DNA of 64,000 nt, taken from the IMG/VR virus record IMGVR_UViG_3300037067_016777, positions 128,001-192,000 of that record. One strand, 5' to 3'. Positions 2,928 to 20,817 of this stretch are shown piece after piece (position 1 is the stretch's first letter; each line of letters starts with the position of its first letter). The stretch comes from a virus (Duplodnaviria; Caudoviricetes). The notes under the pieces are model-generated. The model searched no databases, had not been told where the DNA came from, and saw nothing but the letters and a program-made list of their open reading frames with translations. The translations under genes and the position numbers were made by a program.

Positions 2928-3959
2928 TCAGCCTTTCAACAAAACTAATTTTCTATTTTGCATTTGAATAATAGTTTTATCCTTATATCTTGATCGAATA
3001 AGGTCATGCATATCTACATCTTGATACATCCAAGCATACTGCTCTTCGTTTGGCTCTGGTAATTCATAGAGCAACATATTTGATATTCTTCTAATATGAT
3101 CCAACAGTTTTTCAAATTTTTCTATTGGATTTTCTTTCGAAAAGTGGTGTAGTACAGCCAGAGCAAAAACACAATCAACGCTTTGGCTGCATTGCTCTAC
3201 GACATCAAAGAAGTTATCATTACGTGCAACAAACCCAATTTTATCAAACAATAGTTTCAACACATTATATCTAGTGCGATTGTATTCAACACCTATTGCT
3301 GAATTAAGTAGCTTTTTTATGCTATAGAGGACATGACCGTGGCAGCTACCAAGATCGAGCACTGATTTAATCTTGTGCTCTTCGACAATACCTTTAATAG
3401 CCAGTTCTTTTATATCGTTGTTGCAGTAATTCCAATCTTCGAAGTCTGGATGTGGTATAGATTGATACATTAGAGTTGGATATAACTGTCTTAAATCGTC
3501 TACGATTTTCTGCCACTTATCTTGTCGCTCGCAAATTGTAAATCGAATAGGATAACCTAAAGCAAATAGAATTGATATTCTATGCATGCCATCCCAAATA
3601 GATATACCGCCGTCATTTTCGATTTTTACACAAATGGGACCAAAGTAATGCGTGCACCCGTTTATCACACGATTCATCATTTCGTGTTCTACAAAATTAG
3701 GTGCTATTCTAAATAGACGCTTGAAATTTTCATATTGTTTTGTAATATCATACTCGTTATTTAATATTCCATTCCAAACACTACCATTAATATCTAATTC
3801 ATTCTTTAGCCATTGATAATATGGTGTCTCCACCATCGCAATATCTATATTCTCTATCCACATCTTAGCCGTTTTATAATGTGGAAATTCAAGAATTTTT
3901 AACTTTAATTCTTCGCTCCATGGATCACAACCCAAATTAACAACTTTATAATTGTCCAT
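2928..3959 (-). CDS. ParB/Srx-like N-terminal domain fused to class I SAM-dependent methyltransferase
   Basis: IWDGMHRISIL (ParB-like DGxHR); VLDLGSCHG, GVEYN, CVFALAVLHH (MTase motifs). Confidence 0.7.
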   Translation of the reverse strand: MDNYKVVNLGCDPWSEELKLKILEFPHYKTAKMWIENIDIAMVETPYYQWLKNELDINGSVWNGILNNEYDITKQYENFKRLFRIAPNFVEHEMMNRVINGCTHYFGPICVKIENDGGISIWDGMHRISILFALGYPIRFTICERQDKWQKIVDDLRQLYPTLMYQSIPHPDFEDWNYCNNDIKELAIKGIVEEHKIKSVLDLGSCHGHVLYSIKKLLNSAIGVEYNRTRYNVLKLLFDKIGFVARNDNFFDVVEQCSQSVDCVFALAVLHHFSKENPIEKFEKLLDHIRRISNMLLYELPEPNEEQYAWMYQDVDMHDLIRSRYKDKTIIQMQNRKLVLLKG

Positions 3960-12033: not shown

Positions 12034-12264
12034 TTAAAATCCGATCCTAGTACGGTTCTTATTGGTATGATGGCTTTTGTAATTTATCAATATCAACCAG
12101 CAATAGGTGGTCAGACTGCCAGTTATAAATCCAATTATGCCTTGAATGTATACTAGTGAGAAGTTAATTACCAGACTGCAAAGTAGACATAAAGATATAT
12201 ATAGTAACAGCTTTACCACTTCCTCTTCTGTAATTCGGCTGTGCATAGTATTCAAATACGCCAT
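12034..12264 (-). CDS. Small hypothetical membrane protein
   Basis: Two hydrophobic segments; start trimmed to MAYLNT to avoid overlap with dUTPase. Confidence 0.4.
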   Translation of the reverse strand: MAYLNTMHSRITEEEVVKLLLYISLCLLCSLVINFSLVYIQGIIGFITGSLTTYCWLILINYKSHHTNKNRTRIGF

Positions 12265-12310
12265 ATGGAACGCTTGGGATATATCTAGGCTTGAGATGTA
12301 TTTTAATATT

Positions 12311-12736
12311 ATGCAAATAAAATTCCAGAAATTAGTCGATCGTGCCATAATCCCAACAAAGGCTACACCATTCGCTGCTGGGTTTGATATCGCTAGTATT
12401 GACACCTATGAAATCTGCCCTGGCGAATCCCATATCTTCCCTACTGGTTTAGCTGCCAGCATTGAAGAGGGATATTGTGTCGTCTTATTTGATCGGTCTG
12501 GGATGGGTGCGAAGAAGAACATGCATCGGCTTGCTGGTGTAATCGATAGTGATTATCGAGGGGAGTGGTTGATCTGTCTTGTGAATCTCAGCCGTGATAC
12601 TTATGTTATTCACGAAGGCGATAATATAATTCAGGGATTGGTAATTCCAGTACCCCAATTATCTATCGTCGAGGTGAATAATCTTGACGAGACGGATCGT
12701 GGTAATAAAGGTTTTGGAAGCTCTGATAAGCGCTAG
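12311..12736 (+). CDS. dut: Trimeric dUTPase
   Basis: AAGFDI, DRSGMG, GVIDSDYRGE, IIQG, RGNKGFGSS; start refined to MQIKFQKL. Confidence 0.95.
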   Translation: MQIKFQKLVDRAIIPTKATPFAAGFDIASIDTYEICPGESHIFPTGLAASIEEGYCVVLFDRSGMGAKKNMHRLAGVIDSDYRGEWLICLVNLSRDTYVIHEGDNIIQGLVIPVPQLSIVEVNNLDETDRGNKGFGSSDKR

Positions 12737-12779
12737 TTGAATAGTATCTGTCCCATAACTTACTTAAGGAATTTCAATT

Positions 12780-13256
12780 ATGAAGAGATTCGTAGGTGTC
12801 ATGTGTTTATTGATTATTTTCGTTTCAGTGAACACAGCGTTTGCACGTGGGCGTGGTGGGCGTCGGCAATCTAGTGGTGGAGGACAAACCTCTGCCTCTC
12901 AAAACGCAACAGTGGATAAGGCACCCACCTATGAAGTTGAGCATCGACTTCTCAACGCCATCAATGCTATTCGAGAGAAATATGGGTTGAAGGCTCTTAT
13001 ATTAGATGTACAATTACACCGCACTGCCCGCCAACACTGTGGATGGATGGCAAATGCTCACAATATGGTCCATTCTACTTTCCCATATGCTGAGAATATT
13101 GCCATGGGCCAACCCGATGTTGACGACGTTATGAATGCTTGGATGAACAGTAGTGGACATCGTGCTAATATCCTAAATCCAAGCCATACCAAAGTTGGGT
13201 TATCTGGATATTACTCTCCAAGTGGGAGTCCGTTTTGGTGCCAACAGTTCGAATAA
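12780..13256 (+). CDS. Secreted CAP (SCP/PR-1) domain protein
   Basis: Signal peptide ending AFA; INAIREKYGL, AENIAMGQ, WMNSSGHRANIL. Confidence 0.9.
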   Translation: MKRFVGVMCLLIIFVSVNTAFARGRGGRRQSSGGGQTSASQNATVDKAPTYEVEHRLLNAINAIREKYGLKALILDVQLHRTARQHCGWMANAHNMVHSTFPYAENIAMGQPDVDDVMNAWMNSSGHRANILNPSHTKVGLSGYYSPSGSPFWCQQFE

Positions 13257-13359
13257 AGCACTCCCTAGATGGGTGGTTCAGATGAAGCTTAAATTACCGC
13301 CCATTGGATTTTACTACAATCGTTCACTCGCAGTTTCAGAAGAAATACGAAAGGAAATC

Positions 13360-13629
13360 ATGGCTAAAATTGAATTGGATATGGGTGTCGAAGCACGCGA
13401 TCGCGTTACTGGACTCAAGGGAATTATTACCGGGAAGACGATCTACATCAACGGTTGTGTTCAATGGCTTTTGAAGCCCCCTGTTGATAAGGACGGCAAG
13501 CTCGTTGATGGTTGTTGGATTGATACAATTCAACTAGAAGTAACAGGTCCAGGTATTTCAATCGAGACACCAGAGGTTACTCCGGGTGGCCCCAGGGTGG
13601 ACGCACCACCAACGGCTTATCGCAGTTAA
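13360..13629 (+). CDS. Conserved small phage protein (SH3-like)
   Basis: ARDRVTGLKGIITG...GCVQWLLKP...W.D..QL pattern; AAGGA RBS before MAKIEL. Confidence 0.7.
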   Translation: MAKIELDMGVEARDRVTGLKGIITGKTIYINGCVQWLLKPPVDKDGKLVDGCWIDTIQLEVTGPGISIETPEVTPGGPRVDAPPTAYRS

Positions 13630-13668
13630 CGAAAACACCAAAACTATCAGACTAATAGGAGAATTGAA

Positions 13669-14406
13669 ATGGCAAAGCTGCATCAGATTGTGGCGTTGGT
13701 GAAATCGAAGAAGGCACAAGCGGAATCGGGCCTAACGAAATTGTATCATCTTCTCCAGAAGACCGACCTGCTCGGCGGCATTGCGAGGAACTATCGCCCC
13801 GTCAATGACGAGGATACCGACAAGTTGCCGTCCGAATCCAAGCGGGTTCAGCTGCGCATCCCTGAGGCCATCGAACAGGCGAAGGATGTTCTTGGTCCGA
13901 TGATTGACCTCGTTGCCACTCAGGATGTTGCGAACACGCAGGCTTTCGCCGATATCGTTATCGACGGCACTGTCATCGTCGCACATGTTCCGGCAACACA
14001 TCTGTTGTTCCTTGAACACCGACTTGAAGATCTGTCTACTTTCGTCAGCAAGCTTCCGACTCTTGATCCGTCCGAGGTTTGGCGTCTCGACGACCAAGAG
14101 GGCTGTTATGCGACGGAGCCGTCCGAAACAGTTCGGACGAAGAAGATTCCGCGCAACAATGTCAAGTATGACGCGACCGACAAGCATCCAGCACAGGTCG
14201 AGACATGGATGGAGGACGTTCCTGTTGGCCGCTGGATGACAACGAAGTTCTCCGGTGCGATTCCCGAGGCCGACCGGCGAGCAATGGTCGTCCGAATCCG
14301 CAAGATGCAAGACGCCGTTAAGACGGCGCGATGCGAAGCGAATTGCATCGACGTTCAGAACGTTTCGGTAGCTAAGGATTTCCTCGGCTACATCTTCGGC
14401 GATTAG
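13669..14406 (+). CDS. Conserved uncharacterised helical protein (resembles the DUF7873-type family, recalled from memory)
   Basis: MAKLHQIVA..., R.Y.P..E....LP.ES.RVQ, VPATHLLFLE..L, LPTLDPSE.W, TKK.PR..VK..ATDKHPAQVE...EDVPVG.W...KFSGA, AVK.AR.EAN; AGGAG RBS; visibly higher GC than flanks. Confidence 0.85.
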   Translation: MAKLHQIVALVKSKKAQAESGLTKLYHLLQKTDLLGGIARNYRPVNDEDTDKLPSESKRVQLRIPEAIEQAKDVLGPMIDLVATQDVANTQAFADIVIDGTVIVAHVPATHLLFLEHRLEDLSTFVSKLPTLDPSEVWRLDDQEGCYATEPSETVRTKKIPRNNVKYDATDKHPAQVETWMEDVPVGRWMTTKFSGAIPEADRRAMVVRIRKMQDAVKTARCEANCIDVQNVSVAKDFLGYIFGD

Positions 14407-14439
14407 ACGCATCAGAAGATCTATAAGATCGATGCGTTT
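14405..14439 (+). other. Stem-loop at the stop codon (possible processing or boundary hairpin)
   Basis: agacgcatc/gatgcgttt with inner gatct/agatc. Confidence 0.6.
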
Positions 14440-14449
14440 GATTTATAGT

Positions 14450-14846
14450 TAGTACAGACTCAGACTTTTGTTCAGATTCAGAGACGGTTAACAGTCCAGG
14501 TTCGAATCCTGGTCCCCGCACTTACGAAGAAAACACGCGGGGGTAGCCCAACGGCAGAGGCAAAGCCGCCCATCAATTTCAGACTATTACTACAGACTTA
14601 GCATTACGTCGAGGACCAAATCGAAGTCTCCAGCCAAATTGACCCCGTGGATGCCTGTGCAACTCAGGTCGGCCGCTCTTGGGCAGATTAATTAAGCGGT
14701 CGTCGTACAATCGAAGTACACATGGGTATAAGACTTAGGCTGTAGATTAAATGGAGATAGTTGGTCTGTGAATTCGACGCGTAAATTGCTTGCAACAATT
14801 TCACACAGCCCCGGTGGACCGGATATGTCCACTGGGGCGCTTTTTT
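14450..14846 (+). ncRNA. Putative ncRNA with two circularly permuted tRNA-like modules (YrlA-like topology) and CAGACU repeats
   Basis: Module 1 (14483-14570): T-arm ccagg-TTCGAAT-cctgg, 7-bp acceptor tccccgc/gcggggg, UA, D-arm gcc..GG..ggc. Module 2 (14644-14726): gcctg-TGCAACT-caggt, cggccgc/gcggtcg, gtac/gtac. Long enclosing stem 14601-32/14752-89. Confidence 0.8.
14808..14846 (+). terminator. Rho-independent terminator
   Basis: gccccggtggac-cggatat-gtccactggggc followed by gcTTTTTT. Confidence 0.85.
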
Positions 14847-14874
14847 ATCAGATAAAAATATCTAAGAGGTGTAA

Positions 14875-15174
14875 ATGAGTGAAAAAAGATGCCCTACTTG
14901 TGGGCTATTTTTAATAAAGGAGATTGTTGAATTATCTCCTGCTTATATGTGGGATTGCCCTAACTGTGGCCGTGAAAACTTTCAAAGATCTATAACCCTA
15001 GCAATGTCAGATGAAGATCGCTTTCACATGGGATTAGGTCCAGAGGAAAGTGGATGCTGGCAGAGTTATCCAGACACTGTGATATGCCGCTTTTGTGAGC
15101 AACAGTATAAAACTAAGCATGTAAATCGATCTCGTGAAGATAATGATGAGGGGGAAGAAGATGATTTAACGTAG
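14875..15174 (+). CDS. Zinc-ribbon protein
   Basis: CPTC, CPNC, CRFC; GAGG RBS. Confidence 0.7.
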   Translation: MSEKRCPTCGLFLIKEIVELSPAYMWDCPNCGRENFQRSITLAMSDEDRFHMGLGPEESGCWQSYPDTVICRFCEQQYKTKHVNRSREDNDEGEEDDLT

Positions 15175-15604: not shown

Positions 15605-16153
15605 ATGATTCAATCAATAAGGTTTAAGACAGATTGGCGATGTTTCAAAGAAGGCGATCTATTTGAGTTTAATCCCAGCGTCAATCTATTGGTAGGCGAT
15701 CAAGGGACAGGGAAAAGTTCTCTTCTATCGTTGTTCCGGACGTCAATATACAACAAGCCGGATTTCAGGAAGTTAGTCGACCTCAAAAGTGATGGCGCGG
15801 TCGAACTGCGGTTATTCGACTTCGAACACGATAACCCAAGAACACGGGGATACGTCAAATTCGCGGCTGATGTATACATGCGTTATCAGTCGCACGGTAA
15901 CTGTGTTCTTGCTTTATTTGATGTTTTAGATGAGCAGGCCGATACACGGAAGTGTTTCGTGCTCGACGAACCAGATATGGCTTTGAGCGTCCGCTCGATA
16001 AATAAAATCACTGCGAAACTACAGGCAACGAACCATCAGGTTATCGCTGCCGTACATAATCCTTTTCTGATACGTGCTTTCTCGCAGGTTTTGTCTATCG
16101 AGCACAAGCGTTGGATGTCGTCCGAAGAGTTCATCACACTTCATATTCAATGA
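15605..16153 (+). CDS. Small ABC-type (AAA_21-like) ATPase
   Basis: GDQGTGKSS Walker A, SHGN signature, FVLDEPD Walker B, AVHNP H-loop. Confidence 0.85.
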   Translation: MIQSIRFKTDWRCFKEGDLFEFNPSVNLLVGDQGTGKSSLLSLFRTSIYNKPDFRKLVDLKSDGAVELRLFDFEHDNPRTRGYVKFAADVYMRYQSHGNCVLALFDVLDEQADTRKCFVLDEPDMALSVRSINKITAKLQATNHQVIAAVHNPFLIRAFSQVLSIEHKRWMSSEEFITLHIQ

Positions 16154-16806
16154 GGATAAACATGAGTACGGTATTATTTATCAATTTTATTTGTATATGG
16201 ATTGCTATAGCCGCATTACAAATAAGGGTTTCTTTAGCGTCAAAACGATTGAATATGTATCTAAAAACGATACAGCTTATGTCTGACAGACTTAATACTC
16301 AATCTGACATACTCAAGATTCATTCTATGCGAATGGATATTCAATCTACACGTGTAGATTCTATTCAACATCCGATGCAACCGCCCAAAGATATCATATC
16401 TGGTTTCTCTAGTAATTATAGATTCCTGTCGAATTTCTTTCCGGTTACCATGGTCGTTGATGGTGTCGAATATCCGTCGCTTGAAAATGCATACCAGGCG
16501 GCGAAAACGACTGATCTACAAGAAAAGCTATCTTTCGTTTCGATGACAGCAGGGCAAGCTAAGCGGGCTGGTAGCAAAGTTACATTACGTCCGGATTGGT
16601 GTGATGTTCGTATCGGTATCATGGAAGAGTTGGTTCGTAAGAAATTTACGGAAAATCACGACTTAGCCGATGCACTGATGGCGACGGGCACTCTTGAATT
16701 GGTCGAAACTAATGACTGGGGAGACTGTTTCTGGGGTGTCTGCGAAGGAAAAGGCGACAATTGGCTTGGCAAGATATTGATGAAAGTACGGTCCGAACTA
16801 AAATAG
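16150..16806 (+). CDS. NADAR (YbiA-like) domain protein with N-terminal hydrophobic segment
   Basis: FLSNFF, ENAYQAAK, M..LVRKKF, LVE....DCFWG...G.NWLGKILMKVR. Confidence 0.88.
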   Translation: MRINMSTVLFINFICIWIAIAALQIRVSLASKRLNMYLKTIQLMSDRLNTQSDILKIHSMRMDIQSTRVDSIQHPMQPPKDIISGFSSNYRFLSNFFPVTMVVDGVEYPSLENAYQAAKTTDLQEKLSFVSMTAGQAKRAGSKVTLRPDWCDVRIGIMEELVRKKFTENHDLADALMATGTLELVETNDWGDCFWGVCEGKGDNWLGKILMKVRSELK

Positions 16807-16808
16807 GT

Positions 16809-17063
16809 ATGGGAATGATGAGTTTATCGAGCGACGACATCAATGAACTTTCCAAGATGATTTCTGAGGATGTTAATGAATCGCCACTCATAACAGTCCC
16901 AGGTTTCGGGCAGATGACAAAGCAGCAAGCTTTGCAGACCACCATTACTTATCTTCGTCAGATGACCGAGCAACTAGAGCAAGGTACAGCGATCCCGCCG
17001 CATTACTTCGATATGGCTAAAGATCACTACCAAGCTTTTCTTGGTGAATCTATCGCGCCTTAA
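16809..17063 (+). CDS. Hypothetical protein
   Basis: ORF in operon; start refined to first ATG after the NADAR stop. Confidence 0.6.
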   Translation: MGMMSLSSDDINELSKMISEDVNESPLITVPGFGQMTKQQALQTTITYLRQMTEQLEQGTAIPPHYFDMAKDHYQAFLGESIAP

Positions 17064-17125
17064 TTTTTGATTATTCTCTCAGCATAGCCAGTATGTATAT
17101 AACATATTGGTCTAGGAGAATGATT

Positions 17126-17461
17126 ATGGCTGTCGATCTTGAATTGGCTAACCGCGTTGTTGTTTATCTAAATGAATTGGCCGAACTCGATAGACCATGT
17201 GTTGGGGCTCTAATCGCAAATAGAATCCCATGTAATGAAGCTCTTGCCGATCATCCTACATGTCAAGTTTCAGCACAGCATGGTGGTTGTCATGTAGGTC
17301 TATTAGGATTGCTCAATGGCCTATGTGGAAGCTATGATGATGGTCCTAGGAAGGGATGGGGAGCTATAGCGGCGGTGTTTGATGAAGCACCTAAAGGGCA
17401 GTATGCTTGTCTAAGGGAATTTAATATCGTCTTAAACGAAGAACAGAAGCAAAATGAATAA
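17126..17461 (+). CDS. Hypothetical phage protein
   Basis: AGGAG RBS before MAVDLE; RIPCNEALADHPT..V...GLLGLLNGLCG. Confidence 0.7.
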   Translation: MAVDLELANRVVVYLNELAELDRPCVGALIANRIPCNEALADHPTCQVSAQHGGCHVGLLGLLNGLCGSYDDGPRKGWGAIAAVFDEAPKGQYACLREFNIVLNEEQKQNE

Positions 17462-19055
17462 AGCTAGATTTCACACAATAGATCAGCCTGAGTCAGATAC
17501 AACGACGTTCGTTTTGAGTTGTAATAGGCTTGATGTACTTAGAAAGACTTTGGCGTCATTTCTAGCGACACGAGACTACACCACCAAGATGGTGATAGTC
17601 GACGACAGTGCGGTCGAGGGTGTTTTTGAGAAGCTTGTTGAAGAATATGGCGTCTATTGTGATGTTATTTGTTTTCCGAGAAATCGTAGCCAATGGTGGG
17701 CTATGGATTTCATGGTCTCCTATTGTGATAGTGAGTACATTTTCTACCTTGAAGATGATTGGGAGTTTTTGAGGTCAGGTTATTTAAACGATTCAAAGAG
17801 AATTCTTAAAAAGTACAGAAACATCGGAACAATTGATATCTCTTGGAGAACGTTTGAATGGCAAGGAATTAAAGCCTACGACAAGCAACTAGTTACGTTC
17901 AAGGCAGATGATGGAGTTGATGTCTCATATTATAATAAGATCCCATGGACAATTACAGATTACCATTTGGCTTGGTATGGTTGGGTCGGTAGCCCGAATC
18001 TTAAGCGCCGCGATGATCTAATATGGCTAGGTCGTGTTGAGAAATGGCACAATGAGTGGAATATCGATAGAAAATTCTATGCAATGGGTTATAAGGCTGT
18101 TTTCCTCGGTGGTCAAGAGTATGTTAGACATCTTGGCGATAACTGTAGTGCGATAGCTGGTAGAAGGCCAGATGATTCTAAGACACCAGATGACTACGTT
18201 CCAAACGAACTAAAGCATGACAGAATTTATCCACAATTAAACTATCGTTGGCTTGATAAAGGTTACCGCCATCCGTATGATATTACTGTAGTATCAATGA
18301 TGGTTGATCTCAACAGGGGTGATAGAAGTTTTGAAGGTCATTATCTGGAAGGAATTAAAAAACTCCTAAACACACGTCATCGGTTAGTACTGCATTGCGA
18401 TGAGAAGTACTTTGAGCAGATGAGGCAATTAAGAGGCGGTCGCGAAATAACGCTAATACCATTCAATACGGCGATTATTGAACAATCTGATTTCTTTCAG
18501 GGCGTTCAAGATGTTATCTCAAAATATGGATGGCTTAATCAATCGGCTTGGATGAATAATAGCGTTATTGGATCTCGATATTATATTGCGATGACGCTTA
18601 TGAAGCAGCGTTTACTGAATGAAGCAACGCTAAATAGTAATAGTAGTTATTTCTATTGGGTAGACTCTGGGATGACTAACAGTTTTCATATTGAAGGTGA
18701 GTTAGATCAGTTCTATTTTACAAGAATACCAAAAGATAAATTTTTTCTAACATCATATCCATATTATACTAATACTGAAGTGCATGGTTATAATATGAAT
18801 GGGATGATCGAAAGATGTGCTAGAAATCCGAACTATGTCTGTCGTGCTACTTTATTTGGCGGGACGAAGGAACAAATACAACAACTTACGCCAATATTCT
18901 ATGATGAAGTAAGCTGGGCAATTAAGAATGGATATATGGGAACTGAAGAGGCATTTTATACAATATTGAGTGTTTTATATCCCGATTTGTTCAATAGAAT
19001 AGAAATGCCAAATGGCGATATCAAGAATTTTTTGGGTACATTGAGGCAATGCTAG
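17454..19055 (+). CDS. GT2-like glycosyltransferase fused to HtrL/YibB-like domain
   Basis: SCNRLDVL, IVDDS, FYLEDDW; C-terminal FYWVDSG, LFGG, MGTEE. Confidence 0.75.
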   Translation: MNKARFHTIDQPESDTTTFVLSCNRLDVLRKTLASFLATRDYTTKMVIVDDSAVEGVFEKLVEEYGVYCDVICFPRNRSQWWAMDFMVSYCDSEYIFYLEDDWEFLRSGYLNDSKRILKKYRNIGTIDISWRTFEWQGIKAYDKQLVTFKADDGVDVSYYNKIPWTITDYHLAWYGWVGSPNLKRRDDLIWLGRVEKWHNEWNIDRKFYAMGYKAVFLGGQEYVRHLGDNCSAIAGRRPDDSKTPDDYVPNELKHDRIYPQLNYRWLDKGYRHPYDITVVSMMVDLNRGDRSFEGHYLEGIKKLLNTRHRLVLHCDEKYFEQMRQLRGGREITLIPFNTAIIEQSDFFQGVQDVISKYGWLNQSAWMNNSVIGSRYYIAMTLMKQRLLNEATLNSNSSYFYWVDSGMTNSFHIEGELDQFYFTRIPKDKFFLTSYPYYTNTEVHGYNMNGMIERCARNPNYVCRATLFGGTKEQIQQLTPIFYDEVSWAIKNGYMGTEEAFYTILSVLYPDLFNRIEMPNGDIKNFLGTLRQC

Positions 19056-19083
19056 TATTTTAAAAAGGTTAAAGGAGCATATC

Positions 19084-20817
19084 GTGCGATTCCACGTCAT
19101 GGGACTCCAACATACTGTTTCGTCCAAAGAGTTTGTTGCTTGTGCATACACTCAGAAGGTCGTCAAATTCGCGAAGATGATGACTGACCGTGGTCATACT
19201 GTTATTCATTATGGACACGAAGATTCAGATCTACAGTGTTCGGAACATGTACCAGTCCTTACAGATAAGGATTGGAAGGTAGCTTATGGTAATCATGATT
19301 GGAGGAAGCATTTCTTCAAATTCGATACCGGCGACCACGCTTATACGACATTCAATGCGAATGCAATAAGAGAGATCGGCAAACGCAAACAGAGGAACGA
19401 TTTTATTTTGCCTTTCTGGGGATCTGGACACAGACCTATTTGCGATGCTCATCCAGATCTTATTTGCGTCGAGCCAGGGATCGGCTATGCTGGTGGACAC
19501 TGGGCTAAATATAAGATCTTCGAATCTTATGCTATTTATCATGCCTATTATGGCCTGACATCTGTTAGCTCTTGCATACAGAATTGGTATGATACCGTTA
19601 TACCGAATTATTTCAATCCAGATGAGTTTGAATTCTCCGCTGAGAAAGACAACTATTTTTTATTTTGTGGCCGCGTATATGTTGGTAAGGGCATCCATAT
19701 TGCTGAGCAAATTGCAAAAGCAATCGGTGTTAAGCTTATTGTAGCAGGACAGAAGGGTGATGATTATGAATTGTCTAAAGATCCACTTATTGAATTTGTC
19801 GGATATGCGGATATTGAAAAGCGTAAGAAACTTATGTCACGTGCTAAAGGTTTAATTTTAGCCAGTCAATATAACGAGCCTTTTGGTGGTGTCCAGATTG
19901 AGAGTTTGTTCTCTGGTACGCCGACAATTACAACAGATTGGGGCGCTTTTACAGAGAACAATCTACACGGAATTACCGGTTATCGGTGCCATACTTTCGA
20001 GCAATTTGTTTGGGCTGCGAAGAATATTGATAAGATTAGTCCACATGCTTGCCGTGCCTGGGCACTTAATAATTTTTCGATGGAACGGATTGCCGGAATG
20101 TATGAGGAGTTTTTCGAGTCTATCTTGGATATTCATGGAAAACAGGGGTGGTACGAGCCAAAGCCAAATCGAACAGACTTATTGTTCAATAAGAAGTTCT
20201 ACCCAGTTGTTGAGGAGAAGATTGATTATACACAAGTAGCAAAAGAGGAAGAGCCGTTTGCGAAACAGTTAGCTACTTGGATTAAGGAGGCTGTCGACCC
20301 GAAAGATGTAATCGATATCGGATGCGGTCCTGGGATTTATACTTATGCGATGACTAATGTAGGTATTAAGTGTATAGGTATAGATATCGACCCGCGTATC
20401 GCCGACGAGGAGGGTCTATTTGTTGAAGATCTGTTGCAATTAAATGGTAAATTTCAAAAGCAACTTGCGATTTGTTTAGAAGTAGCAGAACACATCGACC
20501 CACAATATTCTAACCAAATCGTAAAGCAAGTCTATGATTGTGTTTTGCCAGGAGGTATTCTGTTATGGACAGCGGCGTGTCCTGGTCAGGGTGGTGTCGG
20601 GCATATTAACTGCCGACCGAAGCAATATTGGCGTGAGAAGTTCGAAGCGCTTGGTATGGTCTATGATGACGCTTTGCATTCCAAGTGTATAGAGTATTGT
20701 CTGCAAGGCCCACACATGGGCTGGTTTATCAACAATCTACTATGCTTCCGCAAATACGCACCAGTTGTGGCGGAAGAGAACATTATTGTTAAGAAACCGA
20801 GTAAAAAGAAAGTCTAG
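19084..20817 (+). CDS. GT4 glycosyltransferase fused to class I methyltransferase
   Basis: EPFGGVQIESLFSGTPTITTDWGAFTE; IDIGCGPG, CLEVAEH, PGQGGVGHIN. Confidence 0.85.
   Translation: MRFHVMGLQHTVSSKEFVACAYTQKVVKFAKMMTDRGHTVIHYGHEDSDLQCSEHVPVLTDKDWKVAYGNHDWRKHFFKFDTGDHAYTTFNANAIREIGKRKQRNDFILPFWGSGHRPICDAHPDLICVEPGIGYAGGHWAKYKIFESYAIYHAYYGLTSVSSCIQNWYDTVIPNYFNPDEFEFSAEKDNYFLFCGRVYVGKGIHIAEQIAKAIGVKLIVAGQKGDDYELSKDPLIEFVGYADIEKRKKLMSRAKGLILASQYNEPFGGVQIESLFSGTPTITTDWGAFTENNLHGITGYRCHTFEQFVWAAKNIDKISPHACRAWALNNFSMERIAGMYEEFFESILDIHGKQGWYEPKPNRTDLLFNKKFYPVVEEKIDYTQVAKEEEPFAKQLATWIKEAVDPKDVIDIGCGPGIYTYAMTNVGIKCIGIDIDPRIADEEGLFVEDLLQLNGKFQKQLAICLEVAEHIDPQYSNQIVKQVYDCVLPGGILLWTAACPGQGGVGHINCRPKQYWREKFEALGMVYDDALHSKCIEYCLQGPHMGWFINNLLCFRKYAPVVAEENIIVKKPSKKKV

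Follow-up and report, generated by a model that had tools for sequence, protein, structure and literature searches.

A structured noncoding RNA of roughly 400 nt, built around two circularly permuted tRNA-like modules that form its two domains or heads, lies at about 14440-14846 on the + strand of a 64,000-nt stretch of viral DNA (positions 128,001 to 192,000 of the 269-kb IMG/VR phage record IMGVR_UViG_3300037067_016777, estimated to be 74% complete), which is hereafter termed the window. The RNA follows a gene encoding a protein of the Pfam family DUF7873 on the same strand, and this arrangement recurs in phages and bacteria. It represents a widespread and apparently unnamed RNA class, which is sister to the bacterial Y RNAs of the YrlA type and is independent of the gene for Ro60, the TROVE protein by which the Y RNAs are defined. 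The best overall explanation, which the balance of evidence somewhat favours, is that this two-headed RNA of the Ro60-uncoupled sister class has the DUF7873 protein as its partner. Literature searches disclosed no paper naming DUF7873 or this RNA, and nothing relevant on permuted tRNA-mimic RNAs in phages.

Anatomy of the two tRNA-like modules

Both modules are confirmed as real, and every element assigned to them by an earlier note on this DNA was present in the sequence at its position (Table 1). Their elements share one order, namely T-arm, acceptor 3' strand, linker, acceptor 5' strand, U8-N9, D-arm and closing stem, which together constitute a four-way junction, while neither module encodes an anticodon loop or a CCA end, as had been claimed. 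The nucleotides responsible for the tertiary contacts of tRNA are largely kept, including U8, the GG of the D-loop, and a T-loop of the form U-[U/G]-C-R-A. Both four-way junctions were obtained in minimum-free-energy folds with z-scores of only -1.1 to -1.7, so that thermodynamics by itself is weak evidence.

The expectation that standard tRNA finders would miss the modules was borne out, since ARAGORN reported 0 tRNA or tmRNA genes in the window, and Rfam returned nothing at gathering score for the native order, no family reaching threshold on this RNA. A re-permutation test was also performed, in which the 5' half, a synthetic 7-nt loop, the 3' half and CCA were joined before submission to ARAGORN, and both modules were then drawn as cloverleaf tRNAs. 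Because the loop and the CCA were supplied artificially, this call demonstrates tRNA-like geometry and nothing more.

The larger RNA

In each half of the RNA, a circularly permuted tRNA body sits at the tip of a long interrupted helix; in this body the T-arm stacks on the loop-closed 7-bp acceptor stem, a D-arm is present, and the closing stem takes the place of the anticodon stem of a tRNA. A terminal hairpin stands at the RNA end. No open reading frame (ORF) of at least 50 aa exists on either strand in 14407-14874, and a small zinc-ribbon ORF at 14875-15174 bounds the RNA region on the 3' side. In the leader helix around module 1, the compensatory change of TAGTA/TACTA to TAGCG/CGCTA was observed. 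Repeats of the CAGAC/CAGAU type with 6-nt spacing were also noticed on both flanks of module 1 (14453-14482 and 14575-14598); their spacing and U/A positions are invariant from phages to Actinomycetota, which exceeds what pairing between the two sides would demand.

Module 2 had been described as sitting inside a long interrupted helix of three segments. The first two, CGTCGA 14607-12 with TCGACG 14774-79 and GACCAA 14614-19 with TTGGTC 14761-66, are conserved and covary, but the third (tctcca/tggaga) is lost in close relatives and has to be replaced by a covarying pair of CAGCC 14631-35 and GGCTG 14738-42. The counterparts of this pair, read from the alignment of the five related contigs introduced below, are CACAATC/GATTGTG in L001, CTCCAG/CTGGAG in L002 and TCAACC/GGTTGA in L005. 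An AUCGA motif 5' of module 2 is invariant, and a UUAAAYG motif 3' of the module is common across hosts. The GG-N-U-A of the terminal loop is kept in at least 90% of 53 sequences, including those of Actinomycetota without a U-tract; judged from its sequence, the terminal hairpin is likely to be both a terminator and a conserved element of the RNA.

Table 1. Positions in the window of the elements of the two-headed RNA and of its upstream neighbours
Feature	Position	Strand	Basis and remarks
DUF7873 gene, 245 aa	13669-14406	+	Pfam PF25283, E 1e-94; conserved upstream neighbour of the RNA
Hairpin right after the stop codon, between DUF7873 gene and RNA	14407-14437	+	Minimum-free-energy and centroid folds; sequence not conserved among relatives
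Leader with CU[C/G]A-type hexamer repeats; 5' strands of module 1 interrupted helix (14450-54, 14459-66)	14450-14466	+	RNAalifold (14450-54 with 14588-92; 14459-66 with 14575-82); repeat columns invariant across phyla
Module 1	14483-14570	+	Sequence, folds, RNAalifold, re-permuted ARAGORN; weak full-length YrlA alignment
Module 1 closing stem	14483-89 / 14564-70	+	6/7 pairs, one A.C mismatch
Module 1 T-arm	14496-14512	+	CCAGG / TTCGAAT (canonical loop) / CCTGG
Module 1 acceptor, 7 bp	14513-19 / 14537-43	+	Includes one G.U pair
Module 1 linker, 17 nt	14520-36	+	Closes the acceptor stem
Module 1 U8-A9	14544-45	+	Sequence
Module 1 D-arm	14546-61	+	Loop contains GG; UAGCCCAA..GGCAGAGGCA nearly invariant across phyla
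3' strands of module 1 interrupted helix	14575-14592	+	RNAalifold, columns 229-247 paired with 92-109
Module 2 long helix, 5' side	14607-14635	+	CGTCGA 14607-12, GGACCAA 14613-19, conserved AAAUCGAAG 14618-26, AGUCU 14625-29, CAGCC 14631-35
Module 2	14644-14726	+	Sequence, folds, RNAalifold, re-permuted ARAGORN
Module 2 closing stem	14644-49 / 14721-26	+	Sequence
Module 2 T-arm	14653-69	+	Loop TGCAACT
Module 2 acceptor, 7 bp	14670-76 / 14696-702	+	Sequence
Module 2 linker	14677-95	+	Sequence
Module 2 D-arm	14705-19	+	GTAC-N7-GTAC
Module 2 long helix, 3' side	14738-14779	+	GGCUG 14738-42, AGAUU 14744-48, conserved UUAAAUGG 14747-54, UUGGUCU 14761-67, UCGACG 14774-79
Small hairpin, lineage-specific	14784-14802	+	Fold; present in L001-L005, elsewhere variable or absent
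Terminal hairpin, 12 bp, loop CCGGAUAUG, and U-tract	14808-14846	+	Terminator scan: 14808-38 with U-tract scores as an intrinsic terminator

Conservation and covariation

The window was aligned with five related jumbo-phage contigs (L001-L005), whose DUF7873 proteins are 64-82% identical to that of the window. Downstream of DUF7873 these contigs keep the leader and the terminal hairpin, as well as both modules with the helices that connect and surround them, and an exact 24-mer of module 1 is common to two contigs in which DUF7873 is only 64-66% identical. RNAalifold on the six sequences proposed 76 pairs, 14 of them with compensatory changes and including 14607-19/14761-79 around module 2; the acceptor and closing stem of module 2 bear such changes in L001, L003 and L005. 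Moreover, the whole RNA also aligns with that of the Gordonia phages GodonK and Guey18, Rhodococcus phage NiceHouse, Arthrobacter phage Mimi and a Planobispora chromosome. These hosts have in common the hexamer-repeat leader, the near-invariant D-arm of module 1, AUCGA, UUAAAYG, and the GG-N-U-A of the terminal loop.

For wider surveys a strict module motif was defined, in which the 5-bp T-stem and the 7-bp acceptor must both pair perfectly, the T-loop is of the form T-[T/G]-C-[A/G]-A, and 3-69 nt close the acceptor. Since this motif itself requires paired T and acceptor stems, covariation was tested on the other helices. A compensatory change was found in 45 of the 47 RNAalifold pairs in a MAFFT alignment of 53 sequences. 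The D-stems and the four segments of the module 2 outer helix gave 79-98% canonical cells, compared with a maximum of 53-92% in 200 column shuffles, and the four outer segments alone gave 79-94% against a shuffle maximum of 53-77%; slid controls were likewise much lower than the observed pairing in the D-stems and the module 2 outer helices. Closing stems with at least 5 contiguous pairs occur in 64% of 207 modules, as opposed to 23% in combinations of flanks taken from different loci.

Among 152 distinct loci, in which the spacing between modules is 143-212 nt, the facing acceptor 3' and 5' strands are mutually complementary in 138, in dozens of sequences. As many as 46 and 56 distinct acceptor stems, for modules 1 and 2 respectively, still pair, which supports the proposal of the earlier note that shared geometry with differing sequence reflects selection on shape.

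Linkage to DUF7873 and distribution

The survey covered 160 DUF7873 loci drawn from phages and at least five bacterial phyla. The strict motif was found downstream on the same strand in 146 of them, 86 with two copies, as against 2/160 upstream and 1/160 on the opposite strand. In the window, module 1 starts 90 nt past the DUF7873 stop codon, and a distance of about 40-130 nt is typical of other loci. Twelve of the 13 deposited phages that were fetched passed the strict scan, and the remaining one, a Microcoleus phage, possesses a module with a longer linker. The module also accompanies far relatives of DUF7873 (27-35% identity) in Vibrio, Rhizobium, Klebsiella (LPKP23) and Ralstonia (RSL1) phages.

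The protein family itself is broadly distributed. It was detected by tblastn in 75 deposited phage genomes, and a profile search recovered 347 viral stretches and at least 577 bacterial stretches from a collection holding one genome per species, whereas a search of bacterial genome contigs with the single DUF7873 protein had given no match. Among the 80 bacterial stretches listed, Planctomycetota, Chloroflexota, Actinomycetota, Myxococcota and Armatimonadota are represented. In sampled Mycobacteriaceae, DUF7873 was present in 2 of 81 genomes, a number too small to support a contingency test. In Nocardia and Planobispora the gene is solitary, in an ordinary chromosomal neighbourhood, and is followed by a gap of about 500 nt, and in many phages the cassette of gene and RNA is embedded within tRNA gene arrays, which points to tRNA- or translation-related biology.

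Two variants of the arrangement deserve mention. In several Nocardia species (L027:6900-7150) the strict scan finds a single module with a divergent D-arm (GGCGUAAAGG), which is followed by an element in normal tRNA order with an anticodon-like arm. In Klebsiella phage LPKP23 (PV112478.1), a tRNA-Stop(tta) is annotated between two mimic modules downstream of DUF7873 (L196:3013-3096), and ARAGORN agrees with this annotation. The 3' half of this supposed suppressor tRNA consists of elements of module 2, namely its T-arm and the 3' strand of its acceptor (3070-3093), so that the mimic RNA has probably been mistaken for a tRNA gene.

Relation to YrlA and Ro60

YrlA has been described as a tRNA in circularly permuted order, in which a loop closes the acceptor stem and the anticodon loop is missing; it is bound by Ro60 and encoded within about 4 kb of rsr, on the same strand (PMC4201824; 10.1101/312249). 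The earlier note had named YrlA as the model to be tested, and it proved to be the sole tRNA-like Rfam family that aligned over its full model, though far under the cut-off: on module 1, the Rfam YrlA model (RF02553) gave 13.8 bits (E 9.4, 14469-14589, end to end) against a gathering cut-off of 69. The proposed search with Rfam YrlA and tRNA models thus recovered the YrlA layout in full length, but at only 13.8 bits and with no match to any Rfam tRNA model. A stronger resemblance was displayed by module 2 of GodonK (38.2 bits, E 8e-7).

Both modules share with YrlA the same order of stem, T-arm, loop-closed acceptor, D-arm and stem, the missing anticodon loop and free CCA, the tertiary-contact nucleotides, a long terminal helix, and an occurrence in bacteria and phages that is at times beside tRNA genes. 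In contrast to YrlA, the DUF7873-linked RNA scores far below the cut-off, has no adjacent TROVE gene and is present in TROVE-less genomes; it also has two full heads, a repeat-rich leader, other internal-loop motifs and a conserved terminal-hairpin loop, and it always lies 3' of DUF7873.

The relationship was further resolved with R1, a covariance model of 117 positions built from module 1 and its 3' conserved segment. R1 scored 97.2 bits on the window (positions 1-117), whose sequence was part of the training alignment, and 99.5 bits over all 117 positions next to DUF7873 on a Nocardia chromosome outside the training set; of the two genomes with DUF7873 in the Mycobacteriaceae sample, it failed to detect the second (G078). 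Five weaker matches were obtained in 79 DUF7873-negative relatives, four of them confined to the core (31-47 bits) and the fifth covering the full model at 36 bits, and three of the four core-only matches (32-47 bits) lie just upstream of TROVE genes. The full-length matches on the one hand and the core-only matches on the other indicate that the two RNA classes share the core and differ in all else.

The distribution of TROVE bears directly on a rival explanation, which we regard as unlikely, namely that the RNA is an ordinary YrlA/YrlB Y RNA pair working with Ro60 (Rsr) from the host or from the missing part of the phage, with DUF7873 as a neighbour or accessory. No TROVE gene was found in the 269-kb record, whose incompleteness leaves room for such a gene, and the close relatives G001-G003 do encode TROVE. 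The YrlA layout of the core, with its end-to-end Rfam alignment and the score of the Gordonia homologue, would also suit a Y RNA, and the conserved AUCGA(A/C)(N)G motif is reminiscent of GNCGAAN0-1G. TROVE is moreover enriched in genomes carrying DUF7873, being present in 13 of 35 bacterial genomes and absent from 22. On the other side, six of the ten phage genomes checked (GodonK, NiceHouse, Mimi, PA-SR01, Vibrio D517 and RHph_TM16), all of them complete, contain the cassette and no TROVE gene, and the same holds for complete Nocardia and Ktedonobacterales chromosomes. In the bacterial genomes for which positions were reported, TROVE never adjoins DUF7873. In phages, the distance exceeds 80 kb in the jumbo phages G001-G003 and amounts to 5.5 kb in one Rhizobium phage. 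In G001-G003 (L021-L026) and RHph_TM21B (L019/L020), TROVE proteins of 474-529 aa have adjacent, separate YrlA-like RNAs of their own, so these phages appear, from sequence, to carry two tRNA-mimic RNA systems. The scores of these TROVE-adjacent RNAs, just 30-37 bits, imply that the 69-bit cut-off is strict for this lineage. The R1 scores beside TROVE (32-47 bits, core only) and beside DUF7873 (97-99 bits, full length) likewise speak against a Y RNA pair of the usual kind.

The same rival draws on the tandem arrangement of YrlA and YrlB in Mycobacterium smegmatis, which are produced from one precursor. With that precursor the RNA shares two T-arm RNAs in tandem from one transcript, the 7-bp acceptor, and a C corresponding to the C74 seen here. 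By the published description, with which the comparison was made, the M. smegmatis pair differs in that it is encoded upstream of rsr and co-immunoprecipitated with Rsr (PMC4201824). Two YrlA/YrlB patterns derived from the primers of that study had no exact match in the genome collection.

Points against a Ro60-independent partnership

Several observations weigh against a class uncoupled from Ro60 with DUF7873 as its partner. TROVE is encoded by 37% of the DUF7873 carriers, compared with roughly 5% of bacteria quoted in PMC4201824, and the conserved AAAUCGAAG 5' of module 2 resembles the proposed Ro60 contact GNCGAAN0-1G, keeping CGAA-G and not the first G, with relatives that read AUCGAC(N)G; taken together, the enrichment and the contact-like motif make some functional overlap with Ro60 possible. 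Adjacency of the genes alone is no proof that DUF7873 binds the RNA, and the protein is mildly acidic (pI 5.9) with no recognisable RNA-binding fold. One-headed RNAs in Vibrio and Rhizobium phages fit poorly with a correspondence between a protein dimer and two heads. In this phage, position 55 in the T-loop of module 2 is G and the D-loop of that module is without GG, which may give the module a non-canonical elbow. Finally, the locus samples consist of the best-scoring relatives, and independent covariation comes from the unselected helices only.

Other explanations

A second rival holds that the RNA acts only in cis, as a 3' untranslated part of the DUF7873 mRNA, and that its tRNA bodies recruit RNase P or 3' processing enzymes to define or stabilise the mRNA end, with no function in trans. 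The invariable position of the RNA past the DUF7873 stop codon on the same strand is what this proposal would predict, no sigma-70-like promoter was found between the gene and the RNA in this phage, and 7-bp acceptor stems are good substrates of RNase P. Nevertheless, end formation would require far less than some 400 nt of RNA with two heads and with sequences conserved in both the internal loops and the terminal loop, the RNA is in places more conserved than the protein, as the shared 24-mer illustrates, and a separate hairpin stands between the gene and the RNA. We consider a purely cis-acting role improbable, placing it after the Y RNA pair.

A third possibility is that the modules are working tRNA genes, permuted or split, which undergo rearrangement to give decoding tRNAs, or that they form a molecule resembling two-piece tmRNA. 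The 3' half does precede the 5' half as in permuted tRNA and tmRNA genes, N-CCA is encoded after the acceptor 3' strand in many relatives, and the copy in a Gordonia phage gives a weak tmRNA_permuted match (19.3 bits, E 0.084). Two-piece tmRNA with SmpB offers a further likeness in its permuted order, a tRNA-like domain without an anticodon arm, and a dedicated small protein. The DUF7873-linked RNA differs in having a full D-arm, no pseudoknots, and closing stems that run on into conserved long helices. The alanine identity pair G3.U70 is found in just 7 of 208 modules, both window modules being G3-C70, which renders aminoacylation of the tmRNA type unlikely. The permuted tRNA or tmRNA reading was rejected as highly improbable, there being no anticodon loop, no candidate tag frame (the region holds no ORF of at least 50 aa), and no call by Rfam or by ARAGORN, which found neither tRNA nor tmRNA in the window and no tmRNA in two relatives.

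Decayed neighbouring tRNA genes or a chance likeness, for which the modest fold z-scores and the position of the cassette among tRNA genes in many phages might be adduced, were rejected as having a negligible probability, because the comparative data contradict them: complementary facing acceptor strands would not be yielded by two unrelated adjacent tRNA genes, and the other helices covary and are conserved across phyla, so that the outcome by which the earlier note would have abandoned its own reading did not appear.

GOLLD and ROOL are large structured RNAs of phages that occur near tRNA genes. They are comparable to the present RNA in a length of several hundred nt, an ornate conserved structure, and a frequent place beside phage tRNA genes, whereas the DUF7873-linked RNA is built of tRNA bodies and has a fixed protein-gene neighbour. 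Neither family matched within 14300-14950, either at the Rfam gathering score or at E<=10.

The DUF7873 protein

The AF2 model of DUF7873 is confident (pLDDT 88), and a homodimer with a large symmetric interface is predicted, with an ipSAE of 0.75 compared with 0.00 for the best control. At least 96% of contacts are common to the dimer runs, with a partner pLDDT of 89 or more. The mark applied for a dimer was reached by 20 of 30 proteins solved as same-chain pairs and by 1 of 23 solved as single chains. Comparison by sequence with solved structures gave no match, Foldseek against the PDB gave none at E <= 0.001, and a wide structural search returned helical designs and bundles with a best Z of 8.0, inside the background range. 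The Atlas structure search retrieved DUF7873 itself only, while the Atlas feature search scored 0.80, which is the chance level, and PHROGs gave no family for DUF7873.

Processing clues and proposed function

The residues following the acceptor 3' strand are informative about maturation. Module 1 has A at position 73 (77/85), where module 2 has U or G; C occupies position 74 in 78-91%, with a pyrimidine following at position 75. Many relatives encode N-CCA outright, and the ACUU and UCUU of this phage are the commonest non-CCA forms. The first acceptor pair is G1-C72 in 171 of 208 modules. A precedent is provided by the YrlA of M. smegmatis, the only YrlA with a 7-bp stem, which is cut by RNase P and whose encoded C is extended to CCA in vivo (PMC4201824). 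On the grounds of the 7-bp acceptors, the predominant G1-C72, the conserved C74 and this precedent, it is probable that RNase P cleaves the heads in the linker and that trimming and completion of the CCA end follow.

The following course can be envisaged. The RNA would be transcribed with, or just after, the DUF7873 gene, and would partner the DUF7873 protein, for which a symmetric homodimer is predicted. Each head might be bound by one protomer, an arrangement that would account for the presence of two heads. The resulting ribonucleoprotein may present tRNA-shaped handles to tRNA-recognising enzymes, and in phages such a particle would probably serve the quality control or repair of tRNA and other RNA during infection, or decoy host nucleases directed at tRNA. 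A full proposal, in which the DUF7873 homodimer and the two-headed RNA constitute an undescribed Ro60-independent ribonucleoprotein that serves RNA surveillance or repair in bacteria and, in phages with their tRNA islands, protects or replaces the tRNA pool or decoys defence nucleases, is offered tentatively, as a possibility that we judge to be well short of probable.

Genomic surroundings in this phage

The G+C content of the window is 0.48 at 13000-15000, in comparison with about 0.38 (about 0.35-0.43 in the flanks), and this compositionally distinct block suggests that the DUF7873 gene and the RNA may be a horizontally acquired cassette. In this record, the cassette is situated outside tRNA clusters, and the four tRNA genes are located elsewhere. 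The neighbouring genes at 12146-13256 and 15605-20817 are of an auxiliary nature. They encode a dUTPase, a CAP/SCP-family protein (labelled as a sporulation protein in PHROG), a short SMC/SbcC-like P-loop ORF overlapping a NADAR-domain ORF, and two large glycosyltransferases, one of which is fused to a methyltransferase. Public sequencing runs matching 13669-14860 are DNA metagenomes from groundwater and landfill, with no RNA run among them.

Significance

In at least one jumbo phage of Klebsiella, part of this RNA has already been annotated as a suppressor tRNA reading a stop codon. Several hosts and phages that carry it have been cultured, including phages of Gordonia, Rhodococcus, Arthrobacter, Rhizobium, Vibrio, Klebsiella and Ralstonia, which makes the proposals directly testable. 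Bacterial Y RNAs are the only described class of circularly permuted tRNA mimics without an anticodon, and they are defined by their Ro60 partner. The present case differs in that the tRNA-shaped core is doubled, set in a larger conserved RNA, and coupled to a highly conserved protein without a recognisable fold. If the particle of DUF7873 and the two-headed RNA proves to be true, it would constitute a second, independent use of tRNA mimicry in an RNA-protein machine.

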